A stretch of DNA of 64,000 nt, taken from positions 21,924 through 85,923 of the forward strand of contig JAHWKM010000001.1 of assembly GCA_019347895.1 (NCBI GenBank), read 5' to 3'. Position numbers and translations under genes: made by a program. Each line of letters begins with the position of its first letter. The first letter of the stretch is position 1. Under the pieces are notes generated by a model. It had not been told where the DNA came from and ran no database searches. It was given only the letters and a program-made list of their open reading frames with translations. Of the stretch, positions 23,404-63,201 are shown in pieces. Origin of the DNA: Candidatus Parcubacteria bacterium (GTDB lineage: Bacteria > Patescibacteriota > Saccharimonadia > Saccharimonadales > 2-12-FULL-41-12).

Positions 23404-23480
23404 TGGTGGGGGTGCCTGGATTTGAACCAGGGACCAATCGGTTATGAGCCGACTGCTCTAACCACTGAGCTACACCCCCA
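23404..23480 (-). tRNA. tRNA with a CAU anticodon, most consistent with tRNA-Ile2 (lysidine-modified, k2CAU).
   Basis: The reverse complement reads TGGGGGTGTAGCTCAGTGGTTAGAGCAGTCGGCTCATAACCGATTGGTCCCTGGTTCAAATCCAGGCACCCCCACCA. It forms a cloverleaf with a 7-bp acceptor stem, a CTCATAA anticodon loop and an encoded CCA. The D-arm and T-arm closely resemble E. coli ileX, and tilS is present in the same window. Confidence 0.8.
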
Positions 23481-47640: not shown

Positions 47641-48067
47641 AGCTTCGGGCTTCAGCCCCTGAAATTGTTCCAAATACTTGGTAAGACTCCCCGTTATCGT
47701 TGTTTATGCCTGCAATTATATGTTGCAATTCAACAGCGCTGTCTTCGTAGACGCCTTGCAGCATTAATTCAAAGTATGCTGCTGTATTTCTATTGCCAGC
47801 CGTTTTTTCCTCGGCTTCTCCCATAGCTCTTTTTACCAGATCAGGGTCAAAACCATGGTATATTCTGTCCGAATAATTATAGTGAGTTCCGGGGAGGTCT
47901 TGAATGCCTCTTCTCGGGAGTACTAAACCTTGAGCCAAGAAAATAGTTCTACCGCCAACAGACCTAGTAAATCTTTCGTCGGTAAAGTGGGGGTAGAGCA
48001 TATGCGAAGGAATTTCCTGATCCTTTAAGCGTACTGGTTCAAGCTCACCAAATGCTGTAAATGCCAT
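47639..48067 (-). CDS. Hypothetical protein (142 aa).
   Basis: ORF lying directly downstream, on the minus strand, of repeat copy 48125..48263. Confidence 0.4.
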   Translation of the reverse strand: MAFTAFGELEPVRLKDQEIPSHMLYPHFTDERFTRSVGGRTIFLAQGLVLPRRGIQDLPGTHYNYSDRIYHGFDPDLVKRAMGEAEEKTAGNRNTAAYFELMLQGVYEDSAVELQHIIAGINNDNGESYQVFGTISGAEARS

Positions 48068-48124
48068 AGTTATAATAAACTATCATATTGTTAAGATTAT
48101 GCCAACAACAGCAATGGTTCAATC

Positions 48125-48263
48125 GTAGCGGGGGCAGGGCATCGCGCGCCTTTGGCGCACTCCTTCTTGCGATGCTCGGCAATAAAATGTAAACACTTTA
48201 TTGTCCTGTGCTTCTCATTCGCCGAACCTCCGGTTCGTGTCCAGCCCCGCTGCTATCGAAGAT
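48125..48263 (-). repeat. 139-bp element, copy 1. Its first 14 nt (gtagcgggggcagg) are identical to the 3' end of tRNA-fMet. It is a candidate attR or integrative-element end.
   Basis: It is near-identical (about 4 mismatches) to 52730..52868. It contains the hairpins GCGCC-AAA-GGCGC and CGAACC-TCC-GGTTCG. Confidence 0.7.
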
Positions 48264-48287
48264 GTGAAATTTCGGTAAAACAAGTTA

Positions 48288-48656
48288 TTAACTTCTGCTT
48301 TGTACATACAGGCTGACGAAAAGTACCAAAATTCCGGAAAGTGCAAATATTCCAGAAGGAATCAACCAAATTAACCCACCCAATCCTTCGTAGAGGAATA
48401 TTGCCCCAAAGCAAAGGGCTGCTAGCAGTAATAAAACTAATGATAGCTTAAACGGTTTGCTCGTCGGCTTGCTAATACCCGGGGTACCATTTTTGAATGT
48501 CGTAATATGGTAGACTGGAATTAATAATATCCCTAATATAATCAAGCTTACACCTGGCCACCGGACCGCTCCTCCTCCGTCATTATCCAACAACACATAT
48601 AAACCCCATCCCGCTACGATCAGTATAGGTGAAAAGATTTTTATTATCATGTCCAC
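48288..48656 (-). CDS. Small 4-TM membrane protein (122 aa).
   Basis: ORF, strongly hydrophobic. It lies inside the AT-rich island. Confidence 0.4.
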   Translation of the reverse strand: MDMIIKIFSPILIVAGWGLYVLLDNDGGGAVRWPGVSLIILGILLIPVYHITTFKNGTPGISKPTSKPFKLSLVLLLLAALCFGAIFLYEGLGGLIWLIPSGIFALSGILVLFVSLYVQSRS

Positions 48657-49002
48657 ACTATAGCAAAAGAGGTCTTAACAACCTCAACTCGGGCAATAAT
48701 TTGCTCCGGGTTTCTGGCTGTCCGAACTACCATCTGGCAGTTCTCCCCTGCGACCTTTCTAGCGTCGCAGATTCGAGCCGTGGCTCCGACAAAGAAAAAA
48801 GCTCTGGAATGGGTCCAAAGCTTTTTTCTTGGTAGACATGACTTTGAAGAGTTGATTCATATTAAAAAAGAACTGTTGTCAATGCGGCAGATAGTGAATG
48901 AAGCACAGAGCTTAACGAAGGTTATAACATGAGCAACAGTACTAGAACCGTGCACTTAAATAAAGTAAGGCTTTACATTAATTACTCTGATAGAATACCT
49001 GT

Positions 49003-49575
49003 ATGAGTAAGTTAGATTTAAACAGTAAAGATATATTATTGTTGCTTATCTACACAAAAATAAACAACGAAGAAAATGGATCAATTTCAGGTAGAACAAG
49101 GATTATGAAGTTATTGTTTTTATTTAAGAAGGAAGTCTTCAAAAAATTTAAAAACGATGGCCAAGATTTAGATAAACTTAAATTCGATGCATGGAATTAC
49201 GGACCATTTTCAAAAGAAATCTATGATGATATAGAATTTCTTTCTAATATTGGTTTTTTAAGTGTAAGAATAAGTGAAGAAGATACGTCAATTGAGGAGG
49301 CAGCTGAATACAATCATTGGGAAGATGGATTTAGTGACTCTAATGATGTAGAAGAATTTACACAAGAGGAATTCTCGCTTACTGATCAAGGTAATAAATA
49401 CGTGGAAATAGAACTATGGAATAAGTTAAGCGAAGCTCAAAAAAGTGTGCTGGGCGAGTTCAAACAAAGCTTCGGAACTGTTCCATTGTATGCACTTCTT
49501 GAATACGTTTATAAAAAGTACCCCAAATACACAACCGAGTCTAAAATTAAAAATAGAGTACTTGGTAGGTCATGA
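49003..49575 (+). CDS. Panacea-domain (DUF4065) protein, SocA/PanA antitoxin-like.
   Basis: ILLLLIYTKINNEENGSISGRTRIMKLLFLFKKEVFKKF...KLKFDAWNYGPFSKEIYDDIEFL fits the DUF4065 core (hydrophobic KLLYL helix ... F.AW.YGP... Y). It is the first gene of a four-gene overlapping operon in an AT-rich island. Confidence 0.6.
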   Translation: MSKLDLNSKDILLLLIYTKINNEENGSISGRTRIMKLLFLFKKEVFKKFKNDGQDLDKLKFDAWNYGPFSKEIYDDIEFLSNIGFLSVRISEEDTSIEEAAEYNHWEDGFSDSNDVEEFTQEEFSLTDQGNKYVEIELWNKLSEAQKSVLGEFKQSFGTVPLYALLEYVYKKYPKYTTESKIKNRVLGRS

Positions 49576-50081
49576 ATCCGACGGCTGGTGAGGTTATAAC
49601 AGGGCTGTGGTGGATTCCCTTTCTTTTTCAAAGCATACCTCTTCTAGCATTTCTTTTTAGCCAGTTTTTAATAAAAGATCAAGATTATAGCGATAAAGTG
49701 GGATTATTTATTAATGCCAATAAAGCAAATCATGCAAAAGCACTAAAACGATTTGTTGTAACTGAAATAGATGGCGATATAGAGGAGAAGTGCCTAGAGT
49801 TTATCAATGAAAGTAGCCGTCGTTTTAAGCTTACGGCCGCGCTAAGCTCCTATGGGAAAATCTACACAAAATTAGCAAGTATATCCTTAAGGCTATTAAT
49901 AGCTTCAAGTGTTATATTCATTGCTGGAGTTGTAGCAGTTCTATTAAACGATAAAGCAGAAATATGGGCATTAAGCGTTAATACTGTTCTAGCAATTTCA
50001 AATATTACGATAATTTATGCTATGAGGCATTATCTCGTAAAGCTTCAGTCCCTGGCGGGTAATGAGGATATCAGTACATGA
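49572..50081 (+). CDS. Membrane protein with N-terminal and C-terminal TM helices flanking a soluble region. It is a candidate toxin or effector partner of the Panacea gene.
   Basis: Its start overlaps the upstream stop (ATGA). The TM helices are GLWWIPFLFQSIPLLAFLFSQFLI and LLIASSVIFIAGVVAVLL...VLAISNITIIYA. No family recognised. Confidence 0.45.
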   Translation: MNPTAGEVITGLWWIPFLFQSIPLLAFLFSQFLIKDQDYSDKVGLFINANKANHAKALKRFVVTEIDGDIEEKCLEFINESSRRFKLTAALSSYGKIYTKLASISLRLLIASSVIFIAGVVAVLLNDKAEIWALSVNTVLAISNITIIYAMRHYLVKLQSLAGNEDIST

Positions 50082-50476
50082 GTGAATATCAACTACAGCA
50101 ATGGTTTGCTGTCTATTTGCAGAGTCAAGGATTTACTGTTTATCAAGAAGTACCTTTTTTATCTCGATCAATTGATATTGTTGCGGAAAAAGATGACGTT
50201 ATTTTAGCCTATGAACTAAAACTTAACGATTGGCGTAAGGCAGTAGCGCAATCAAGCGACCATCTACATGGAGTCGATAGGTCATATGTGTGCATGCCCT
50301 TAAAGTCAAAGATCAATGAAGAATTGATTCACTTAATTCAGGCTAATGGACTTGGGCTTGTTGTTTTTAATATAGAAGCTCAGACTGTCGAGGAAATTAT
50401 TCCTGCCCTTGATTCCGGGTCAGTTTGGCAACCTGCGAGAAAGTGGTTAACTACGGGCATGGAGTTTGCGTTATGA
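50078..50476 (+). CDS. Small PD-(D/E)xK nuclease-fold-like protein (132 aa).
   Basis: It is coupled to the upstream gene by an ATGA overlap. The core ...EVPFLSRSIDIVAEKDDVILAYELKL... carries a D-x(n)-E-x-K arrangement (IDIV ... ELK) typical of restriction-endonuclease-like folds. Confidence 0.4.
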   Translation: MSEYQLQQWFAVYLQSQGFTVYQEVPFLSRSIDIVAEKDDVILAYELKLNDWRKAVAQSSDHLHGVDRSYVCMPLKSKINEELIHLIQANGLGLVVFNIEAQTVEEIIPALDSGSVWQPARKWLTTGMEFAL

Positions 50477-51792
50477 GCGTTACACATTATTTACGATTTG
50501 GAACACACGCTGAGAGCAAGTACTTTCTTGGTAACGGTAAAGACATGTACGATTCGATTATTTTTAATGGTAATATGGTCGCCTATACACAATCAGCAAT
50601 TGCAGCATTCATCATAAATACTCACGAAAAAGGTTTCCTAATTGATCCACAGACACATGCATTTCAGCATGATCTAAGCTACTTAAAAAGTAAAAACTCA
50701 AAAGGCGAAGAGAAGATTAAGCAATCTATTCAGCAATTGGCAGATATGCTGGGGAATCCTGTATTAAGTAAGCTTGAATCGAGCCTCCCAGTAACACCTT
50801 CTGACTTTGGAGAGCAGCCGGTCATCGATGCCTTTGCGGAAAAAGTTATTAAGTTTCAAAGCAACATTATAGATACTGTTAAAGAACAAGATGATTGGAA
50901 GTATCTTAAATTTAAACTTAAGGACCAGAAGTCTTCAGAGCCTGCACCTTCTGGTCTTATAGCACCTTATTTCTATATGAGCGAAGTTTCATACGATAGA
51001 TGGCTAGATATAAATGTAAAGCTTATAAATGCTTCAATCGCTCATAGTGGAGAATCTGAACTCATGGCACAACTTGTCATTGCTAAAGATGTTTTAACTA
51101 GCCCTGAAGATCCTATAAGTAAAATAATCGAAGAGTATGGAAACAGTGAGGCAAAAGCTGTTTTAATATGGGTTGATCAATTTAACACTGTAAATGCTTC
51201 CAAAACGGAATTAGCAGCTTTTAGGAGACTTGCAGAAGGCCTAAAGTCTAAGGGCAAAAGAGTAATCGACTTATATGGCGGTTACTTCTCTGTTCTTTTA
51301 AGTAAGAAAGAAATTCTTGATGGTGTCTGTCATGGACTTGAATATGGTGAATCTAGGGCCGTAAAACCAGTAGGAGGCGGTATACCTATGGCTAAATATT
51401 ATTTCTACCCACTTCATTACAGGATGAGATTCACAGATTTTCTTACGGTTCATAAAGCTATGGGTTGGGGAGTAAGTAAGAAATCATTTAATTCAAAGGT
51501 TTGCTCTTGCGAGAATTGCGAAGATGGAGATATCCAAAAGTTCGGCATAACAACACCAGTTAGAATAAAACGAAAATCGGGAATTGTAACACTAAACTAT
51601 CCTACCCAAGAGACTAAAGACCGTAGTCTTATTCACTATTTGAATTGCAAAAGACGAGAATTCAAAACTGTTCAGTCAAAAAGTATTGACGAGCTAAAGA
51701 AAGAACTAATCGACTCCATCAATACATACGAGAATGTGCTAGGTATAGAGTCAGTTTCCCATCTAAATAGATGGAACGATACTTTGAGCTAA
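50473..51792 (+). CDS. Large protein of unknown family (439 aa from the ATG at 50473) with a C-terminal Cys cluster (CSCENCEDGD).
   Basis: The ATG at 50473 overlaps the upstream stop (ATGA). The ORF track's earlier in-frame start at 50425 would overlap the upstream gene by 52 nt. No recognisable motifs beyond the Cys cluster. Confidence 0.45.
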   Translation: MSVTHYLRFGTHAESKYFLGNGKDMYDSIIFNGNMVAYTQSAIAAFIINTHEKGFLIDPQTHAFQHDLSYLKSKNSKGEEKIKQSIQQLADMLGNPVLSKLESSLPVTPSDFGEQPVIDAFAEKVIKFQSNIIDTVKEQDDWKYLKFKLKDQKSSEPAPSGLIAPYFYMSEVSYDRWLDINVKLINASIAHSGESELMAQLVIAKDVLTSPEDPISKIIEEYGNSEAKAVLIWVDQFNTVNASKTELAAFRRLAEGLKSKGKRVIDLYGGYFSVLLSKKEILDGVCHGLEYGESRAVKPVGGGIPMAKYYFYPLHYRMRFTDFLTVHKAMGWGVSKKSFNSKVCSCENCEDGDIQKFGITTPVRIKRKSGIVTLNYPTQETKDRSLIHYLNCKRREFKTVQSKSIDELKKELIDSINTYENVLGIESVSHLNRWNDTLS

Positions 51793-51819
51793 GATTTAAA
51801 AATCTATTTTGATTACTAA

Positions 51820-52182
51820 CTAGGTTTTCGCTTCGTTTGTTCCTAAGATGATGTATTTTGAAAGTGACCTAATTCCCAAATATAAAAGATACAGAGTAAG
51901 ACCGGACAGTATTATAGTTGCAATTTCTTCCGTCAAGACATCGCTTGAATCACAAATTTGTGTTCCTTGATCAAGATTATATCTAAGCCGCTTTTGTGCC
52001 ATTGAAGTGCCAGTGGTTCGAGCGGGGTCGTTATCCGCATTACATTCACTAATACTTCTAACACTGCTATCCAATATAAATACAAACACTATGATCGCTA
52101 AAAGAATATAAATTACTTTTATAAATCGCCACTTGGCATTTTCTTCTAATTTCTTAGTATGGTTTTTCTTCGGCTTGTTCAT
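51820..52182 (-). CDS. Small 2-TM membrane protein (120 aa) with a Cys-containing loop.
   Basis: ORF with the TM helices VIYILLAIIVFVFIL and IILSGLTLYLLYLGI. It lies in the AT-rich island. Confidence 0.4.
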   Translation of the reverse strand: MNKPKKNHTKKLEENAKWRFIKVIYILLAIIVFVFILDSSVRSISECNADNDPARTTGTSMAQKRLRYNLDQGTQICDSSDVLTEEIATIILSGLTLYLLYLGIRSLSKYIILGTNEAKT

Positions 52183-53073: not shown

Positions 53074-53148
53074 TGGTAGCGGGGGCAGGACTCGAACCTG
53101 CGACCTTGTGGTTATGAGCCACACGAGCTGCCGCTGCTCCACCCCGCG
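53074..53148 (-). tRNA. Initiator tRNA-fMet (CAU).
   Basis: The reverse complement reads CGCGGGGTGGAGCAGCGGCAGCTCGTGTGGCTCATAACCACAAGGTCGCAGGTTCGAGTCCTGCCCCCGCTACCA. The 5' CGCGGGGUGGAGCAGC is identical to the E. coli tRNAfMet start. Position 1:72 is unpaired (C1-U72), as in initiator tRNAs. The anticodon loop is CTCATAA and the CCA is encoded. Confidence 0.85.
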
Positions 53149-55269: not shown

Positions 55270-55346
55270 TGGTAGCAGGGGCGAGATTTGAACTCGCGAC
55301 CTCAGGCTTATGAGTCCTGCGCTCTAACCAACTGAGCTACCCTGCC
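55270..55346 (-). tRNA. Elongator tRNA-Met (CAU).
   Basis: The reverse complement reads GGCAGGGTAGCTCAGTTGGTTAGAGCGCAGGACTCATAAGCCTGAGGTCGCGAGTTCAAATCTCGCCCCTGCTACCA. The D-arm GUAGCUCAGUUGGUUAGAGC is identical to E. coli elongator tRNA-Met. The anticodon loop is CTCATAA. The CCA is encoded. Confidence 0.8.
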
Positions 55347-56721: not shown

Positions 56722-57672
56722 ATGAATTTAACCGATAAACAAGAATACGAATTACTGGCCGCAATCTCTGCAAGAGGCCAAATACCAGATAAATTTTATT
56801 ACCTTGACGGCGGCGAGAAATTATGGGACGCAGTGTATAAAGAGAGAAGCAGCCCTGGCGGAATGGCGAATTCTGAAATGAAGCTACTACTAAACCATCT
56901 CCCTAGCTTCATTCATCCCTTTAAAGGCAATAAGGGTATCAATTTGATTGATCTCGGATGCGGAAATGGCCAGCCTGCAATACCAATAATACAAGAATTA
57001 CAAAAACAAAATTTTGACGTTATATATATAGCAGTGGATATTAGTGAAGCAATGATGGATCTAGCAGAAAAAAATATTCTAAAACGCTTCCCGCAATTGA
57101 AAATCAAAAAGCTACTTATTGATTTTGAAAAGGAAAGCCTTACAGATGAATTAATTAATTTGAAATTAGCGTATAAATATCCTAGTCTGCTAATTAATCT
57201 CGGAAACACGCTCGGTAATTATGTAAATGTTTCCAGCGTGCTTACAAATTTTTTGGAATCAATGACTCTTGATGATTATTTGCTTGTTGGCAATGGAATC
57301 GCCAATGAATATAACCCGCAAAAAATTATGTCTTCTTATACAACCGCCGCCCACGACACTGTTACAAGACCCGCTAAACTGCTCGGTCTGTATAAGGATA
57401 AAGATATATTCCGATGGGTGTGGAATGATGAAAAAAAGCAGGTCGAAGCGAGAATTCAACTTCAAGGCGAAAGGCAGATTAATTTAGCTGGCCAGAAGAT
57501 AAATCTGGAAAAAAATGAAGAATTTATGGTTATGAAATCGGTTAAATACTCAGAAGCGACATTGACAAAACTTTTATCAGAAGTTGGTTTTCGCACGGAG
57601 TTACTAACCACAACTAAAGAGCGCAACGATATCTTAGCCTTAGTCCAACCAACTCGTTATACTGCTATATAA
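56722..57672 (+). CDS. SAM-dependent methyltransferase of the EgtD-like (histidine N-alpha-methyltransferase, Methyltransf_33) family.
   Basis: LIDLGCGNGQ is SAM motif I. YIAVDIS and LINLGNTLGNY parallel the EgtD motifs (ELGSGSS, VPIDIS, LGSSIGN). 316 aa. Confidence 0.5.
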   Translation: MNLTDKQEYELLAAISARGQIPDKFYYLDGGEKLWDAVYKERSSPGGMANSEMKLLLNHLPSFIHPFKGNKGINLIDLGCGNGQPAIPIIQELQKQNFDVIYIAVDISEAMMDLAEKNILKRFPQLKIKKLLIDFEKESLTDELINLKLAYKYPSLLINLGNTLGNYVNVSSVLTNFLESMTLDDYLLVGNGIANEYNPQKIMSSYTTAAHDTVTRPAKLLGLYKDKDIFRWVWNDEKKQVEARIQLQGERQINLAGQKINLEKNEEFMVMKSVKYSEATLTKLLSEVGFRTELLTTTKERNDILALVQPTRYTAI

Positions 57673-57684
57673 TAGCGAAATTTG

Positions 57685-59427
57685 TTAATAATCTTCAAGG
57701 GTTGAGGTATCGCCGATGTCTTGGCCAAGTTCCTTTGATTTTAGGATTCGGCGCATGATTTTACCTGAGCGGGTTTTTGGCAATTTGTCGATGAATTCTA
57801 TTTCACGCGGATAAGCGTGGCCGGCCAAATGCTTTTTAACGTGGGCTTGGATTTTAGTCTTTAATTCCTCTGTCTGTTTGACCCCGGGTTGCGTTACAAC
57901 AAAAGCCTTTATAATTTGGCCGCGGATTTCATCGGGCTTGCCGATAACCCCGGCTTCAATAACGTCCGGATAGGTAACAAGTGCGCTCTCGACCTCAAAA
58001 GGACCGACGCGCTCGCCGGCGGTGTTGATGACGTCATCAGACCTGCCGACAAACCAGAAATAGCCGTCTTTATCTTTTATGCCTCGGTCGCCAGAGATAT
58101 ACCATTCGCCCCTGAAGTATGAATCGAATTTTTCCTGATTGTTCCAGATAGTTTTCATGAGCGACGATACAGTTGAAGCTTTTAAAGCCAGATCGCCTTC
58201 TTCGCCAGCCGGCAGTTCGCGGCCACCGTCATCAATCACCGCGGCATAAACACCGGGCAGGGGCTTACCCATAGACCCGGGCTTGATTTCTATGCCGGGA
58301 TAATTAGTGATGCTGATGGCGCCAAGCTCGGTTTGCCACCAGGTATCATGGAACGGCAGGCCGAAAGCGTCCATGCCCCACCAGATAGCCTCGGGATTAA
58401 GCGGCTCGCCAACGCTTGCCAGATGGCGCAGGGAAGAAAGGTCAAAGTCTTTGGGCTGGGTAGGCGCGCCCATCAGCATGCGAATAGCTGTCGGGGCTGA
58501 GTACCAAACCGTGACCTTGTAATCTTGCAAAACTTTATACCAAGCCTCCGGACTGAACCGGCCGTCAAAAATTACCGATGTGCCGCCAAGCCCCCAAATC
58601 CCCAAAACACCGTAAACCACGCCGGTAACCCAGCCTAAATCAGCCGTACACCAATAAATGTCGTCGTCTTGTATGTCTAGCGAATACTTGGTGCTGACCA
58701 TGGCCTGCAGTACATCCAAGTGGCCATGCACCACGCCCTTGGGCTTGCCGGTCGTGCCGGAGGTGTAGAGCATGTAAGAATAATCGTCCTTGCTCATTTT
58801 TGCTGGTTCAAATTCAGCGCTGGCATTAGCCATTTCTTTATCATATGAAACTATGTGTTCGCCCGCCGGCAATTCAGCAGAACCTCTCTCCACTAAAATT
58901 ACCTTCTGCAGCTTTGGCAAATCTTTTTTGATATTTTCTATCCTCGGGTACAGATCAGCGTTAGTAATAATTACGCTTGCTTGAGAATCCTGCAAACGGT
59001 CAAGCAAAGCCATTTCTTGAAAAGCGGCGAACATAGTTCCGGCAATCCCGCCCATTTTTAAAATGCCGAGGAAGGCTACGTAGCGCTCAGGGATAGAAGG
59101 CAAGAATATAAAAACCCGGTCGCCCTTTTTAACATCTTGACCGGTTAAAACATTGGCAAATTGACTGGTTAATTTTTTCATGTCGGCGAAAGTGTAGTCC
59201 TCTTTAGTGCCGTCATCGCCGTTGTAGATAAGGGCTTTCTTATCCTTTTTATCACCTTCGGCGTGCCGGTCAATGCAGTTATAGGCAATGTTCAATGTAC
59301 CGTCCGGGAAGAAATCGACCAGCTCGCCAGCCGCTTTATCCCACGAAAATTCTTGATAGGCTTGTTGGTAATTGGGTAGATTTGGGGTTTTGCGCGGCTT
59401 GCTTTGAATGATCTTTACGTCGGCCAC
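57685..59427 (-). CDS. acsA: AMP-forming acetyl-CoA synthetase family enzyme (short Acs-like).
   Basis: NIAYNCIDRH is the Acs N-terminal signature. YTSGTTGKPKGV is the AMP-binding P-loop. C-terminal PKTRSGKIMRR. 580 aa. Confidence 0.75.
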   Translation of the reverse strand: MADVKIIQSKPRKTPNLPNYQQAYQEFSWDKAAGELVDFFPDGTLNIAYNCIDRHAEGDKKDKKALIYNGDDGTKEDYTFADMKKLTSQFANVLTGQDVKKGDRVFIFLPSIPERYVAFLGILKMGGIAGTMFAAFQEMALLDRLQDSQASVIITNADLYPRIENIKKDLPKLQKVILVERGSAELPAGEHIVSYDKEMANASAEFEPAKMSKDDYSYMLYTSGTTGKPKGVVHGHLDVLQAMVSTKYSLDIQDDDIYWCTADLGWVTGVVYGVLGIWGLGGTSVIFDGRFSPEAWYKVLQDYKVTVWYSAPTAIRMLMGAPTQPKDFDLSSLRHLASVGEPLNPEAIWWGMDAFGLPFHDTWWQTELGAISITNYPGIEIKPGSMGKPLPGVYAAVIDDGGRELPAGEEGDLALKASTVSSLMKTIWNNQEKFDSYFRGEWYISGDRGIKDKDGYFWFVGRSDDVINTAGERVGPFEVESALVTYPDVIEAGVIGKPDEIRGQIIKAFVVTQPGVKQTEELKTKIQAHVKKHLAGHAYPREIEFIDKLPKTRSGKIMRRILKSKELGQDIGDTSTLEDY

Positions 59428-62204
59428 TAACTTTTTTCTCCTTTGGTCCGGAATTCTTTATCAACATCCATAATACATTGTGTAGTAACCATATGCAGGC
59501 CGTAATCTTCGGCAAATTCTTCCGCCTCGATACTGTTAGCCCCCTCTGCAAGCCAAACTGTTTTAATACCGCCCCGCTCTACAATTTCATCAAGATGTGG
59601 AATAACTTCTTCTGGTTTTCTAAAAATATCAACTATATCAATATGTATGGAATCAGGAACATCGAGGAGCGATTTGTAGGCTTTTTCACCTAAAGTCTCA
59701 GTAATTTTAGGGTTTATAGGTATTATTTTGTAGCCCATTTCTTGGAAATACCTGGCTACTCTATGGCTATGGCGTTCAGGCTTGTCGCTTAAACCGATAA
59801 AAGCGATAGTTCGAGCGTTTTTAAGCAAGTTAATCTGTAAATTATCAGAGGAATAAGTAACCACCGGTTCTTTAGCTGACCATTGCCAATTTTCTATATA
59901 CTCGGGGTCGGCACCGTTTTGAATAATATATTCTCTATGGGCTTCAAGTGCTTTTTTATACTTGGCTTGAAGTTTAGTACACTTGTTTTCGTCCATTACT
60001 TGCTGGGAATAGGCTAGACCTAATATTTCACAAGCCAGGTTATAGCGGTCGGTTTTATTTCTGACCTGCATATCAAAAGGGGTAGTAGTATCACCCTCTT
60101 CAACGTAGCCGTTAATAAAAAAGCGCTTTGGATTTTTGGTGTTAAACAAAATACTTTTCATTGCTTCAGGATAGCCGTGGAAGTTTACAATTACCGGCCG
60201 GTCGACGGTAAAGTATTTTTCGGCATTAGGAATTTGCGGGTGGTACTCGTCGCCACAGCTGCAAGCCGCTTGAAGCCTTAGTATATTAACAAATCGAATC
60301 TTTACATTTGGTGCATCAGCTTTAACCAACTCTATGGCAGCCATGGCCTCCTTAGTAACATAGTCGCCAACTCCAACTACTACTACGTCTGGGTTTTTAT
60401 CGCTAGCAAAATCCCAGACTGAAAGACCATCCTCAAGAGCTTCCTTTGACTGTTTATATGAAAGCCAGCGCGGTTCGGGTGTTTTGCCGGCAGATATTAC
60501 GTTCATGCGGTTTTTTGAGCCAAAAGATTCTTCTAAAATAGCTAGCATGCTATTGTCATCGACTGGAAAGTAGATTTTTATGAAATCGCTATGCTTTTCA
60601 AGCAAACCAGAAATGAAGCCAGGATTTTGATGGCTGTATCCATCGCGCTCCTGACGCCATACAGTCGAAGTCAAAAGATAGTTAAACGAAGGCAAATCTT
60701 GACGCCAGGGCATTTTAATAACCTGTTTGAGGAACTTTTGATAGGTGTGTGCCATACTGCCAAAAATTTGAGCAAAAGCTTCATAGGTTGTAAGCGCTAC
60801 ATGTCTGCCGGTTAAAACATAGCCCTGTGCCAGCCCGTGCATATTATGCTCGGAAAGCATTTCCATTACCTTGCCATCGCGGGTTATGTCTTTGTCATCT
60901 TCATCGTGTGGCCAAACCCAGCCGCGGCCGGTTACATCAAAAACGTTATCTAGCCGGTTGGAATAGGTTTCGTCAGGAGACATTAACCGAAAATTATTCT
61001 TTTCTTTGTTCATTTTGAATATCTCTTTTAGGTAAAACCCTGCCATTCGCATAGCGTTAGACTGGATTTCGCCCGGACTTTCTACAGGTTTCTCCAGTTT
61101 GCTGGCAGCGGGCAAAGATAGCGGCTTAAAGTTTTTTCCAAATACGTGAGGATTATTTCCTATTAAATATTCTTCGTCCGGGATAATATCAAGAATGTCT
61201 TTTGAAAAGCCGTTTTTCTTATCAAACAATTCTTCAAAATGGTAAGACTTAAGCCAGCCTTCTAGGGCTTCGAGTTCTTCGTAATCGCTTCGGACGGTTG
61301 GCATTACAACTTGATGGGCTAGAATAGTGCCTTCGATCTTCTGTCCCCTGAGTTCTTTGATTGTAGTCATTCCTTTGGGGGTACGCATAATAATTACCGG
61401 GTAGCGCGGTTTGAATGGCGGGTTATTACTTCGGGCGTCTTCTTGAATTTGCCGGATTCTTTGATAGGCGGATTCCAGCGTGGCTTGCATTTGCTCGTCC
61501 AGGTTATCTCCTTCAATAAAAAAGGCCTCATAACCATAGCCGCTAAATAAACTTTCTAACTCTTCATTATTCATCCTACCAAAAACAGTCGGGCCGGAAA
61601 TTTTATAACCATTGACATGGATTATAGGCAGCACGACGCCATTAACAGCCGGATCAACTAGCTTATTGATGTGCCAAGCGGCAGCAATGGCTCCTGTTTC
61701 GGCCTCTCCATCCCCGATTAAGCAGGCAGCGATCAAATCCGGATTATCTAAGACAGCACCGTAAGCGGAAGCTAGGGAATAGCCAAGCTCGCCGCCTTCT
61801 AAAATTGCTCCAGGTACTTCGGGGTTACAATGGCTTGAGAAGCCAAGAGGCCAGGTATAATTCTTTGATATATAGGTGATGCCTTCTGAATCTCTAGTCG
61901 CATTATCATAGTATTTTCCCAGGGTACCTTCTATTAAAAGATTTGCTTGAAGGGCGGACTGTCCATGGCCTGGCCCCATGATAAATATGGTTGATTGCCG
62001 GTGTTTCTTAACTAAATAATTGAGGTGAGCATAAACGAAATTAACACCAGGGCAAGTTCCCCAGTGGCCGACCAGTTTTGGCTTCACGTCAGTTGATTTA
62101 AGCGGCCGCTCGAGCAGGAAATTATCCTGCAGGTAAATTTGCGCGACAGACAGGTAATTAGCCGCCCGGACGTACTTTTGAATTTTATCGATGTCTTGTT
62201 GCAA
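59427..62204 (-). CDS. xfp: Xylulose-5-phosphate/fructose-6-phosphate phosphoketolase fused to a C-terminal CoA-binding domain (PF13380-like).
   Basis: The N-terminus LVGHWGTCPGVNF is the XFP_N signature. The TPP-binding GDGE region is present. 925 aa, against about 800 for canonical Xfp. The extra C-terminal 125 aa (IAFIGLSDKPERHSHRVARYFQEMGYKIIPINPK...IDIVDIFRKPEEV...) match the CoA_binding_2 pattern. Confidence 0.8.
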   Translation of the reverse strand: MQQDIDKIQKYVRAANYLSVAQIYLQDNFLLERPLKSTDVKPKLVGHWGTCPGVNFVYAHLNYLVKKHRQSTIFIMGPGHGQSALQANLLIEGTLGKYYDNATRDSEGITYISKNYTWPLGFSSHCNPEVPGAILEGGELGYSLASAYGAVLDNPDLIAACLIGDGEAETGAIAAAWHINKLVDPAVNGVVLPIIHVNGYKISGPTVFGRMNNEELESLFSGYGYEAFFIEGDNLDEQMQATLESAYQRIRQIQEDARSNNPPFKPRYPVIIMRTPKGMTTIKELRGQKIEGTILAHQVVMPTVRSDYEELEALEGWLKSYHFEELFDKKNGFSKDILDIIPDEEYLIGNNPHVFGKNFKPLSLPAASKLEKPVESPGEIQSNAMRMAGFYLKEIFKMNKEKNNFRLMSPDETYSNRLDNVFDVTGRGWVWPHDEDDKDITRDGKVMEMLSEHNMHGLAQGYVLTGRHVALTTYEAFAQIFGSMAHTYQKFLKQVIKMPWRQDLPSFNYLLTSTVWRQERDGYSHQNPGFISGLLEKHSDFIKIYFPVDDNSMLAILEESFGSKNRMNVISAGKTPEPRWLSYKQSKEALEDGLSVWDFASDKNPDVVVVGVGDYVTKEAMAAIELVKADAPNVKIRFVNILRLQAACSCGDEYHPQIPNAEKYFTVDRPVIVNFHGYPEAMKSILFNTKNPKRFFINGYVEEGDTTTPFDMQVRNKTDRYNLACEILGLAYSQQVMDENKCTKLQAKYKKALEAHREYIIQNGADPEYIENWQWSAKEPVVTYSSDNLQINLLKNARTIAFIGLSDKPERHSHRVARYFQEMGYKIIPINPKITETLGEKAYKSLLDVPDSIHIDIVDIFRKPEEVIPHLDEIVERGGIKTVWLAEGANSIEAEEFAEDYGLHMVTTQCIMDVDKEFRTKGEKS

Positions 62205-62313
62205 CCTCAGTGTCCCTTATTTAAGTTAAATAACAGTCTAGTCTATTATAAGGTCAGATAGGAGAAATGGCGAGTCAAAATGACTAAATGCCGGAGGATA
62301 TATCAAGCAAGGT

Positions 62314-63201
62314 ATGAACATCCATCTAAGGCCAGGAAAATACGTAGTAGCTGTCTCTGGCGGAGTAGATTCCGTCGTCCTGCTGCATTTGCTAACCGAA
62401 ATACGAAATACGAAATACGAAATACGACTTTTTGTGGCTCATTATGACCACGGCATCAGAAGCAATTCCCAAGATGACCGGTTATTTGTGGAAAATCTAG
62501 CGGCTGCGTACGGGTTGGCGTTTTTTTACGAAGAAGGAAATTTAGGCGCAAATGCCGGCGAGGCCGAAGCCCGCAAAGCCAGATATAAATTTTTGCGAAG
62601 GATAAAACAGCAAACGGATGCCAATGCGATTATTACGGCGCACCACCAGGACGATGTTATCGAAACAGCCATAATAAACCTGCTGCGCGGAACAACGGCC
62701 AAAGGCTTGGCGGCTTTAAAATCCACCGAAGAAATCGCTCGGCCGTTGCTAGAATTTACAAAACCACAAATTATCGCTTACGCTAAAAGCCGGGGGCTTA
62801 ACTGGCGTGAAGACGAAACCAATTTAGATCCGAAGTACCTGAGAAATTATGTGCGCTACAACCTAACCCCTAAATTAACCAAACAGCAAAAACACAAATT
62901 ACTGCAGCTTATTAGATCATCCTCCGAGACTTTGGGCGAAATTTCAGAAATCATAAAAGAGCTGCTGCCGAAGAAAGGCGAGATTGACCGCCAGGGTTTT
63001 ATAAATTTGCCCCATAGCGTGGCCTGCGAATTGGTCGCCAGCTGGCTAAAAGCCGGGAACCTGGCCGTCGATAAAAAAACAGTCGAGAGGCTGGTGGTCG
63101 GGCTTAAGGCCGCCAAGAATGGGACAAGATTGGATATTAATAAAAACTATCAATTTTTGATTGAAAATGGCATTATTAAAATCCAGCTTTCCTCGAAATA
63201 A
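62314..63201 (+). CDS. tilS: tRNA(Ile)-lysidine synthetase.
   Basis: The N-terminal PP-loop VAVSGGVDSVVLLHLL (SGGxDS). The size and the context with a CAU tRNA-Ile2 candidate are consistent. Confidence 0.8.
   Translation: MNIHLRPGKYVVAVSGGVDSVVLLHLLTEIRNTKYEIRLFVAHYDHGIRSNSQDDRLFVENLAAAYGLAFFYEEGNLGANAGEAEARKARYKFLRRIKQQTDANAIITAHHQDDVIETAIINLLRGTTAKGLAALKSTEEIARPLLEFTKPQIIAYAKSRGLNWREDETNLDPKYLRNYVRYNLTPKLTKQQKHKLLQLIRSSSETLGEISEIIKELLPKKGEIDRQGFINLPHSVACELVASWLKAGNLAVDKKTVERLVVGLKAAKNGTRLDINKNYQFLIENGIIKIQLSSK

Follow-up and report, generated by a model that had tools for sequence, protein, structure and literature searches.

A phosphoketolase homolog fused to a CoA-binding domain and paired with a predicted acetate–CoA ligase in Patescibacteria

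In Xfp–AckA operons, which follow the logic of the bifid shunt and of heterolactic metabolism, a thiamine diphosphate (ThDP)-dependent phosphoketolase (Xfp) is paired with acetate kinase (AckA), and the acetyl unit is never brought to the CoA level. The route through phosphoketolase and phosphotransacetylase (Pta), which engineered non-oxidative glycolysis needs today, leads from sugar phosphate through acetyl-phosphate to acetyl-CoA. Patescibacteria, the candidate phyla radiation (CPR), have tiny genomes and a minimal metabolism; they are reported to lack pyruvate dehydrogenase as well as pyruvate:ferredoxin oxidoreductase and mostly to lack acetate kinase, and published genome analyses leave unclear where their acetyl-CoA originates and how they gain ATP (PMC6031116; PMC12361377). 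In CPR genome papers, phosphoketolase figures only as the origin of acetyl-phosphate, and acetate kinase is noted beside it in one soil Saccharibacterium (PMC6031116; PMC12361377). Here we analyze a 64,000-nucleotide stretch of a Candidatus Parcubacteria metagenome-assembled genome (assembly GCA_019347895.1, contig JAHWKM010000001.1, positions 21,924 to 85,923; hereafter the window), in which a phosphoketolase gene extended by a C-terminal CoA-binding domain (xfp-CoA) overlaps a gene for a predicted acetate–CoA ligase (acs). This conserved, translationally coupled pair is a concrete candidate for both the origin of acetyl-CoA and the gain of ATP in Patescibacteria. We found no publication on the fusion, or on the AckA/Acs partner contrast described below, in the literature that we searched for the fusion, for phosphoketolase in CPR bacteria, and for PF13380 function, and the fused sequences that are already public are annotated simply as "phosphoketolase." The fused protein is real and conserved and represents a variant of a well-known enzyme that seems not to have been described before.

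The xfp-CoA gene occupies window positions 59427..62204 on the minus strand and encodes 925 residues (NCBI MBW3568595.1, named "phosphoketolase"). It is followed on the same strand by acs (57685..59427), which encodes 580 residues (MBW3568594.1, named "acetate--CoA ligase"). At the translational-coupling junction (59425..59444, minus strand), which reads AAAGGAGAAAAAAGTTAGTG, the GGAG of an AAAGGAG Shine-Dalgarno-like sequence sits 10 nucleotides 5′ of the acs GTG start, and within TAGTG the stop codon (59429-59427) and the start codon (59427-59425) share the single base 59427. Because of this 1-base overlap, the head-to-tail order, and the presence of a divergent gene at one border and a convergent gene at the other, xfp-CoA and acs look like a two-gene operon.

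By homology, the 925-residue protein belongs with the phosphoketolases. Pfam searches recovered XFP_N (residues 3-356; 61137..62198; E 2.7e-136, 454.6 bits, cut-off 23.7), the central XFP domain (residues 388-561; 60522..61043; E 4.7e-64, 215.8 bits, cut-off 22), and XFP_C (residues 574-775; 59880..60485; E 1.3e-57, 194.9 bits, cut-off 23.4), all on the minus strand and with near-complete profile coverage; the Xfp homolog named in an earlier note on this DNA, which had been made from the sequence alone, is therefore present at full length. The protein also scores 898.3 bits on the NCBIfam phosphoketolase model NF003616 (cut-off 777) and stays under the respective cut-offs of the other NCBIfam phosphoketolase subfamily models. 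Catalytic residues were mapped by alignment to the Bifidobacterium structures 3ai7 and 3ahc. In Bifidobacterium numbering, His64, His97, His142, and His320 correspond to H47, H80, H125, and H297 of the XFP_N domain, which also carries the GDGEAETG ThDP motif; Glu437, Glu479, Tyr501, and His553 correspond to E412, E452, Y474, and H525 of the central domain; and Gln546 and Lys605 correspond to Q518 and K574. All ten are invariant among 120 fused homologs, and because of this invariance and of the NCBIfam subfamily cut-off having been passed, the phosphoketolase core looks catalytically intact.

Unfused phosphoketolases stop 1-8 residues past an IE.W.W motif that corresponds to residues 770-775 of the fused protein, at the end of XFP_C, and the C-terminal extension begins at this point. 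Including its linker, the extension comprises ~150 residues; measured against typical phosphoketolase lengths of 780-800 residues, the excess is 125-145 residues, in agreement with the figure of about 125 given in the earlier note. The linker (residues 776-797; 59814..59879, minus strand), which is marked by indels, leads to a CoA_binding_2 domain (PF13380; residues 798-912; 59469..59813, minus strand) that matches its profile with E 2.6e-33 and 115.4 bits (cut-off 22.8) over positions 1-112 of 116. The domain search thus recovered the fusion that the note had proposed, and the peptide strings quoted there are found in the translation. The note's association of PF13380 with acyl-CoA synthetases also stands, except that the synthetases concerned are of the NDP-forming (ADP-forming) class and not of the AMP-forming class to which the neighboring Acs belongs.

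The family-invariant residues of PF13380 are retained in the fused protein (A801, G804, S806, R811, S813, Y819, G824, Y825, P829, N831, P832, G839, Y843, D856, V858, F861, R862, W884, G888, G902, and C910), and they cover the family motifs A-x-x-G-x-S...R-x-S, G-Y...P-x-N-P, D-x-V-x-x-F-R, W-x-x-x-G, and G...C. The exception is a motif Gln (W-x-Q-x-G) that is found in 90% of the stand-alone proteins compared and is replaced by Ala886 in the fused clade. Ala886 is one of 11 positions whose conservation is specific to the fused clade (F802, H812, F820, H870, I880, T882, A886, E895, F897, D900, and Y901). The nearest solved relatives of the domain are 2d59 (PH1109; E 1.3e-24), 2duw (E 4e-22), and 1iuk (TT1466; E 1e-21), and a more distant one is the CoA-binding domain of the ADP-forming acyl-CoA synthetase (ACD) alpha subunit (4xyl; E 9e-8). 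An AlphaFold model of the fused protein, with a predicted local distance difference test score (pLDDT) of 84 and a predicted template modeling score of 0.83, is confident in the CoA domain, where residues 800-850 reach a pLDDT of ~91 and alternate between strand and helix; at linker residues 779-786 the pLDDT falls below 50. We therefore regard the extension as a predicted but bona fide CoA-binding Rossmann domain tethered to the phosphoketolase C terminus.

Stand-alone CoA_binding_2 proteins (PH1109, 2d59/2d5a; TT1466, 1iuk; Klebsiella 2duw; and the Escherichia coli YccU type) belong to the same fold family as the fused domain but are physiologically uncharacterized single-domain proteins of ~140 residues, whereas here the domain is fused to a 775-residue enzyme and carries the 11 clade-specific substitutions. 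In a 50%-identity representative library, the nearest stand-alone homologs are 45-53% identical to the fused domain, and the family-conserved Cys, which is C910 here, is 95-100% conserved. Other close relatives of the domain are fused to YjeF_N, Pyr_redox_2, CcmH, thioredoxin, and ThiS (P0128, P0138, P0208, P0264, and P0141); together with the conserved Cys, these fusions hint at a thiol- or redox-linked role of the family. Stand-alone PF13380 genes also occur in Patescibacteria (loci L032, L036, and L040), and on the Kaiserbacteria contig MFLZ01000027.1 a second stretch that codes for CoA_binding_2 (L013:7197-7406), 63% identical to the fused domain, lies ~400 nucleotides downstream of the fused gene and ends at the contig edge; this stretch is possibly a stand-alone paralog.

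The same four Pfam domains are found in the best 120 database homologs of the fused protein (67-100% identity, 916-949 residues), the source names of which are Saccharimonadales, Levyibacteriota, Parcubacteria, and Patescibacteria. GTDB species, each represented by a single genome in our scan, yielded 30 loci with a continuous fusion, labeled among others as Saccharimonadia and Levy-, Doudna-, Kaiser-, Lipton-, and Wildermuthbacteria, and a metagenome scan yielded a further 29 fused loci on metagenome contigs. Five genome loci carry the labels Gammaproteobacteria, Limnocylindrales, or Acidiferrales (L016, L017, L027, L014, and L026), share GreA, MurB, LysA, and other flanking genes with Levybacteria, and are probably Patescibacterial contigs in mislabeled bins; one locus labeled Dormibacterota (L006) has flanking genes that are unique. 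On this survey, which answers the question of CPR distribution raised in the earlier note, the hosts of the fused protein are apparently all Patescibacteria. The extension was present in none of 334 phosphoketolase-bearing plasmid records, where canonical enzymes end at query residues 775-779, and the 50%-identity library held no representative of at least 900 residues, the fused proteins being present there solely as the short fragments P0121-P0123 and seemingly represented by other sequences. Within the fused clade, the CoA domain has a mean identity of 0.75, comparable to the 0.66-0.78 of the Xfp domains, whereas the linker has 0.30. Because the best 120 homologs are all fused, the CoA domain is conserved like the core, and its invariant residues are kept, these comparisons indicate that the fusion architecture is real and under selection.

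The second gene of the pair is predicted to encode an AMP-forming acetate–CoA ligase of the PRK04319/NF003313 type. Its product scores 793.7 bits on the acetate–CoA ligase equivalog NF003313 (cut-off 729), so the 1-nucleotide overlap with such a ligase that the earlier note had described is found at the shared base 59427. The product also matches PF00501 (E 1.5e-81) and PF13193 (AMP-binding_C; E 5.6e-25) and carries the catalytic-lysine motif PKTRSGKIMRR near its C terminus. An acs gene adjoins the fusion at 28 of the 29 evaluable genome loci, mostly directly downstream and often with an overlap of 1 or 4 nucleotides. At five genome loci, one to three small genes on the opposite strand (NUDIX, HAD, PP2C, and DUF5615) lie between xfp and acs, and we judge these to be unrelated insertions. 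At the metagenome loci, acs is adjacent in 21 of 29 cases, including all 15 loci for which 2 kb or more is available to each side; at each of the eight loci without an adjacent acs, the contig is cut short on one side or both.

The Acs partners come from two families, NF003313 and TIGR02188, and occur in three gene arrangements. The commonest partner is a 584-residue protein of the NF003313 type, and the TIGR02188 (AcsA-type) partner lies upstream of the fusion in L011, L013, and L019 and downstream in L020 and L022. Because two Acs families are involved and the partner may lie on either side, the linkage was remade or maintained by selection and not simply inherited; it has outlasted both a switch of Acs family and a rearrangement of the genes, which speaks for functional coupling. 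The xfp-CoA/acs pair is the sole conserved unit: no third conserved partner was found among the flanking genes of the fused loci, which are lineage-specific (GreA/MurB/LysA, FtsH/TilS, or Pgl/PGM-like). At four loci of the Saccharimonadales type (L004, L009, L012, and L030), a phosphoglucosamine/phosphoglucomutase-like gene and a small unannotated gene stand beside the pair, and two of these loci also have an adjacent 6-phosphogluconolactonase/NagB-family gene, which amounts to a sugar-phosphate context.

Within the plasmid set, a Legionella fallonii plasmid encodes the closest unfused phosphoketolase, and with this protein as the query we collected 120 unfused enzymes of 768-799 residues. Their named sources are mostly Patescibacteria (Azam-, Harrison-, Yanofsky-, and Vogelbacteria, WWE3, and Paceibacterota), and the unfused Patescibacterial enzymes are 53-58% identical to the phosphoketolase core encoded in the window. 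For all eight unfused proteins checked (nine loci, L082-L090), an acetate kinase gene (PF00871) lies immediately downstream on the same strand and overlaps the phosphoketolase gene, and neither acs nor the CoA domain was found at these nine loci. Conversely, tblastn searches with eight sister-clade AckA queries found no AckA in the 64-kb window, which says little about the genome as a whole, or in the fetched flanks of the 59 fused loci. These Xfp–AckA operons therefore resemble the fused locus in having the homologous ThDP enzyme with the same catalytic residues and, likewise, two overlapping genes of which the second encodes the enzyme that handles the acetyl unit, but they differ in that the phosphoketolase has no CoA domain and stops at IE.W.W and in that the partner is acetate kinase.

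In a tree built from 771 core columns with 30 bootstraps, the fused and the unfused phosphoketolases each come out as a monophyletic clade, the one the sister of the other, in 30 of 30 replicates; the two clades are 57% identical to each other, and either is 43-45% identical to the outgroups. Because the clades are reciprocally monophyletic, the change of domain and the change of partner each map to a single branch. It would therefore seem that one branch gained the CoA domain and has Acs instead of acetate kinase as its neighbor or, alternatively, that the reverse change took place on the other branch. The comparative-genomic signal that the acetyl output of the fused enzyme is likely to be handled at the CoA level is clear. 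Separately, the Legionella enzyme used as the query is encoded on conjugative plasmid II of L. fallonii (L081; NZ_LN614828.1 10218-12554) and is ~70% identical to Patescibacterial enzymes. Its neighbors are ribose-phosphate pyrophosphokinase and thymidine phosphorylase genes, with no annotated acetate kinase within ~4 kb on either side, and the locus looks like a case of horizontal transfer between CPR-type bacteria and Legionella.

The fused clade also departs from described phosphoketolases at the acceptor site. A His548-Asn549 pair is conserved in all four solved phosphoketolases aligned, whereas the window protein has R520-D521 at this position (60642..60647, minus strand), giving WRQ-ERDG in place of WRQ-EHNG or WRQ-DHNG. 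Asp521 is reminiscent of the residue that transketolase has at the equivalent position. Among the 120 fused enzymes the acceptor motif is EHNG in 79, ERDG in 36, and ERNG in 5, and in the unfused sister clade it is EHNG in 119 of 120, with ERDG and ERNG in none of the 120. The substitutions (R alone or R-D, 41 of 120 fused enzymes) are thus restricted to the fused clade and represent a derived state. Asn549 has been described as crucial for activity, orienting the acceptor substrate (PMC11648648). His548-Asn549 stands outside the formal family definition, and canonical phosphorolysis by the window enzyme should not be assumed. We considered the R-D pair as a hallmark of the fusion and rejected this idea because two thirds of the fused enzymes keep His-Asn; the pair remains a clade-restricted oddity. 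A wholesale remodeling of the active site in the fused clade was likewise rejected, as just 13 core positions discriminate the fused from the unfused clade.

The earlier note had cautiously proposed either an unusual node between acetyl-phosphate and acetyl-CoA or CoA-dependent regulation. The comparative evidence supports this proposal, since the fusion is conserved and monophyletic and lies almost always beside an acs gene of one of two families, with ackA beside the sister enzyme. Of the ways in which it could be made specific, we favor one whose probability we nevertheless place a little below even, namely, that CoA receives the acetyl unit by way of the tethered domain, with Acs running between acetyl-CoA and acetate and perhaps generating ATP. 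The core would cleave xylulose-5-phosphate or fructose-6-phosphate to give an activated acetyl unit (2-acetyl-ThDP or acetyl-phosphate), the tethered domain would present CoA-SH, and the acetyl unit would end as acetyl-CoA in a phosphotransacetylase-like step without a Pta fold. Acs would then interconvert acetyl-CoA and acetate, and in its reverse direction (acetyl-CoA + AMP + PPi to acetate + ATP + CoA) it would conserve energy and recycle CoA, taking the role that acetate kinase has in the sister module. The fused enzyme would also be a source of acetyl-CoA for genomes that typically have neither pyruvate dehydrogenase nor pyruvate:ferredoxin oxidoreductase.

Acetyl transfer is favored because the swap of partners tracks the domain, because PF13380 is the CoA module of ACD and of succinyl-CoA synthetase (SCS), and because the acceptor-site substitutions are found in fused enzymes only. 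Because Acs cannot use acetyl-phosphate, the two proteins would make up an uninterrupted pathway only if the acetyl unit is raised to the CoA level by the fused enzyme; otherwise, the conversion of acetyl-phosphate to acetate would fall to an unlinked enzyme. In the ACD alpha subunit and the SCS alpha subunit (4xyl, 2csu), a homologous CoA-binding Rossmann domain positions CoA where it reacts with an enzyme-bound acyl-phosphate (acyl-phosphate + CoA ↔ acyl-CoA + Pi), which is the chemistry proposed here. ACD differs in having phosphohistidine (ligase-CoA) and ATP-grasp domains and in forming its acyl-phosphate from ATP, whereas here it would come from a ThDP enzyme. The ACD models match the CoA-binding part of the fused protein alone (TIGR02717, 34.8 bits, cut-off 567; NF045494, 34.4 bits, cut-off 1200), and the fused protein, which has no phosphohistidine domain and no ATP-grasp domain, is therefore not an ACD. 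If the favored reading holds, the net route from sugar phosphate through acetyl-phosphate to acetyl-CoA would be the same as that of phosphoketolase plus Pta, but the latter relies on a PTA_PTB fold, whereas here a CoA module of unrelated fold is fused in cis and the operon encodes no PTA_PTB domain. Pfam searches found no such domain in the fused protein, in Acs, or in ten further neighboring proteins (nine encoded at related loci, one by a window ORF). In the window, no Pta-sized open reading frame (ORF) stood out in the ORF list, and no Pta-specific search of the whole 64 kb was made.

A precedent for the reverse reaction is SaAcs1 of Syntrophus aciditrophicus, an organism that does not use acetate kinase and whose Acs has been proposed to convert acetyl-CoA, AMP, and PPi to acetate and ATP (PMC13404658). 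In that 2026 preprint, a Glu-Gly pair conserved in forward-biased Acs enzymes is tied to their AMP-forming bias, and the ATP-forming Syntrophus enzyme has Gly-Thr (PMC13404658). The five AcsA-type partners also deviate from Glu-Gly at the start of the CoA loop, with WT in L011, L013, and L019, VG in L020, and IA in L022; as far as the direction of Acs is concerned, we treat this deviation as only a lead. The Acs encoded in the window differs from SaAcs1 in belonging to the shorter NF003313 subfamily. The Glu-Gly criterion is inapplicable to this short type, the loop of which differs, and we drew no inference from it.

A more far-reaching version of acetyl transfer, which we think unlikely as a whole, is that the fused protein is a CoA-acetylating phosphoketolase. 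In such an enzyme, CoA would accept the acetyl unit from 2-acetyl-ThDP or acetyl-phosphate, either in place of phosphate or right after it, within one polypeptide and with no Pta. Together with an ATP-forming Acs, it would constitute a new substrate-level phosphorylation module that replaces Xfp–AckA in one Patescibacterial lineage, with R520/D521 marking its most specialized members. Should the fused enzyme deliver acetyl-CoA, it would get from acetyl-phosphate to acetyl-CoA in a new way, would be of direct interest for engineered non-oxidative glycolysis, and would provide a first physiological role for the widespread, uncharacterized PF13380 "CoA-binding protein" family.

Several observations weigh against acetyl transfer to CoA and a reverse-acting Acs. 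The fused core differs from the unfused core at the 13 diagnostic positions in all, and the canonical EHNG acceptor motif is kept by two thirds of the fused enzymes; for these two reasons, the fused enzymes probably still make free acetyl-phosphate. The lone PF13380 domain comes without the phosphohistidine and ATP-grasp parts of ACD, nothing Pta-like is present in the fused protein, and we know of no catalytic activity for stand-alone PF13380 proteins. The fusions of PF13380 elsewhere to thiol and redox proteins hint at sensing or thiol chemistry instead of acyl transfer, and the linker is variable and includes the low-confidence stretch 779-786. In addition, reverse operation of Acs needs high AMP and PPi, and Bacillus AcsA, to whose family the short-type Acs of the window belongs, acts in the forward direction.

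The principal rival reading is that CoA_binding_2 is a sensor of CoA or acetyl-CoA that exerts allosteric control over an ordinary phosphoketolase, as feedback on the first enzyme, with acetyl-phosphate passing to acetate through an unlinked acetate kinase, an acylphosphatase, or hydrolysis and with Acs running forward. We hold this to be a serious possibility, if a doubtful one. Regulatory add-ons are usually built in this way, as a small domain that binds a ligand and hangs on a variable linker of partly low confidence; the catalytic core is essentially that of the unfused sister clade, and the studied NF003313-type member, Bacillus AcsA, which is of the same type as the window Acs, activates acetate. 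Phosphoketolases are known to be regulated by metabolites, for example by ATP in cyanobacteria (PMC10365998), and acylphosphatase genes are reported to be common in Patescibacteria single-cell genomes (PMC12361377). However, control by a sensor would leave the step from acetyl-phosphate to acetate outside a tightly coupled operon, and the fused neighborhoods fetched contain no ackA, the constant neighbor of the sister-clade enzymes. Reaching acetyl-CoA by way of free acetate would also cost two ATP equivalents, whereas transfer from acetyl-phosphate would be free, and we found no precedent for PF13380 alone as an allosteric module. If the domain were a sensor, the fused protein would to our knowledge be the first CoA-responsive phosphoketolase.

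It is distinctly improbable that the domain takes no part in phosphoketolase chemistry or its regulation and instead stores scarce, salvaged CoA and hands it to Acs, or docks Acs, or has a thiol or redox role through Cys910. Translational coupling of the two genes would yield their products in comparable amounts, and the 11 conserved surface positions of the fused clade could form a protein interface; a redox role would agree with the repeated fusion of PF13380 to thiol and redox proteins and with the conservation of the Cys. Yet Acs enzymes bind CoA unaided, a hand-off or scaffold gives no reason for placing the domain on phosphoketolase instead of on Acs, and the loss of the ackA partner would be left unexplained. 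Finally, an artefact in which a frameshift or misassembly merged a phosphoketolase gene with a CoA-binding-protein gene, acs being adjacent by coincidence, has a negligible probability and was excluded, as the same continuous four-domain ORF recurs in 120 independent database proteins and on 59 independent contigs from many studies, the CoA domain is conserved as strongly as the core, and acs adjacency recurs at almost all loci. The earlier note had named such a merger, together with a missing CoA-binding profile match, as what would speak against it; the ORF proved to be conserved and the profile matched.

Upstream of the pair, the best sigma-70-like promoter match, TCGCCA-17-TATAAT (62245..62273, minus strand), lies ~40 nucleotides from the xfp start within the 109-nucleotide gap that separates xfp from a divergent tilS gene, and it agrees with the consensus at 10 of 12 positions. 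The number of promoter-consensus matches in the xfp upstream region is not above the shuffled expectation, and this candidate is only suggestive. The divergent gene (window 62314-63201) encodes a TilS-like PP-loop protein, and the window contains three tRNA genes with a CAT anticodon (23404-23479, 53074-53148, and 55270-55346), one of which is presumably the lysidine-modified tRNA-Ile2. On the other side, a Methyltransf_33 gene (56722-57672, plus strand) of the histidine-specific, EgtD-like S-adenosylmethionine methyltransferase family is convergent with acs and ends just 12 nucleotides from the acs stop, which is unusual content for a reduced genome. Further away, in a low-GC island (48000-52000; GC 0.37-0.38 versus ~0.44), three overlapping ORFs without a significant Pfam match come after a SocA/Panacea antitoxin-like ORF (49003-49575), and the 455-residue ORF among the three has a sub-threshold S6PP_C match alone; this island is possibly a toxin-antitoxin or defense insert.

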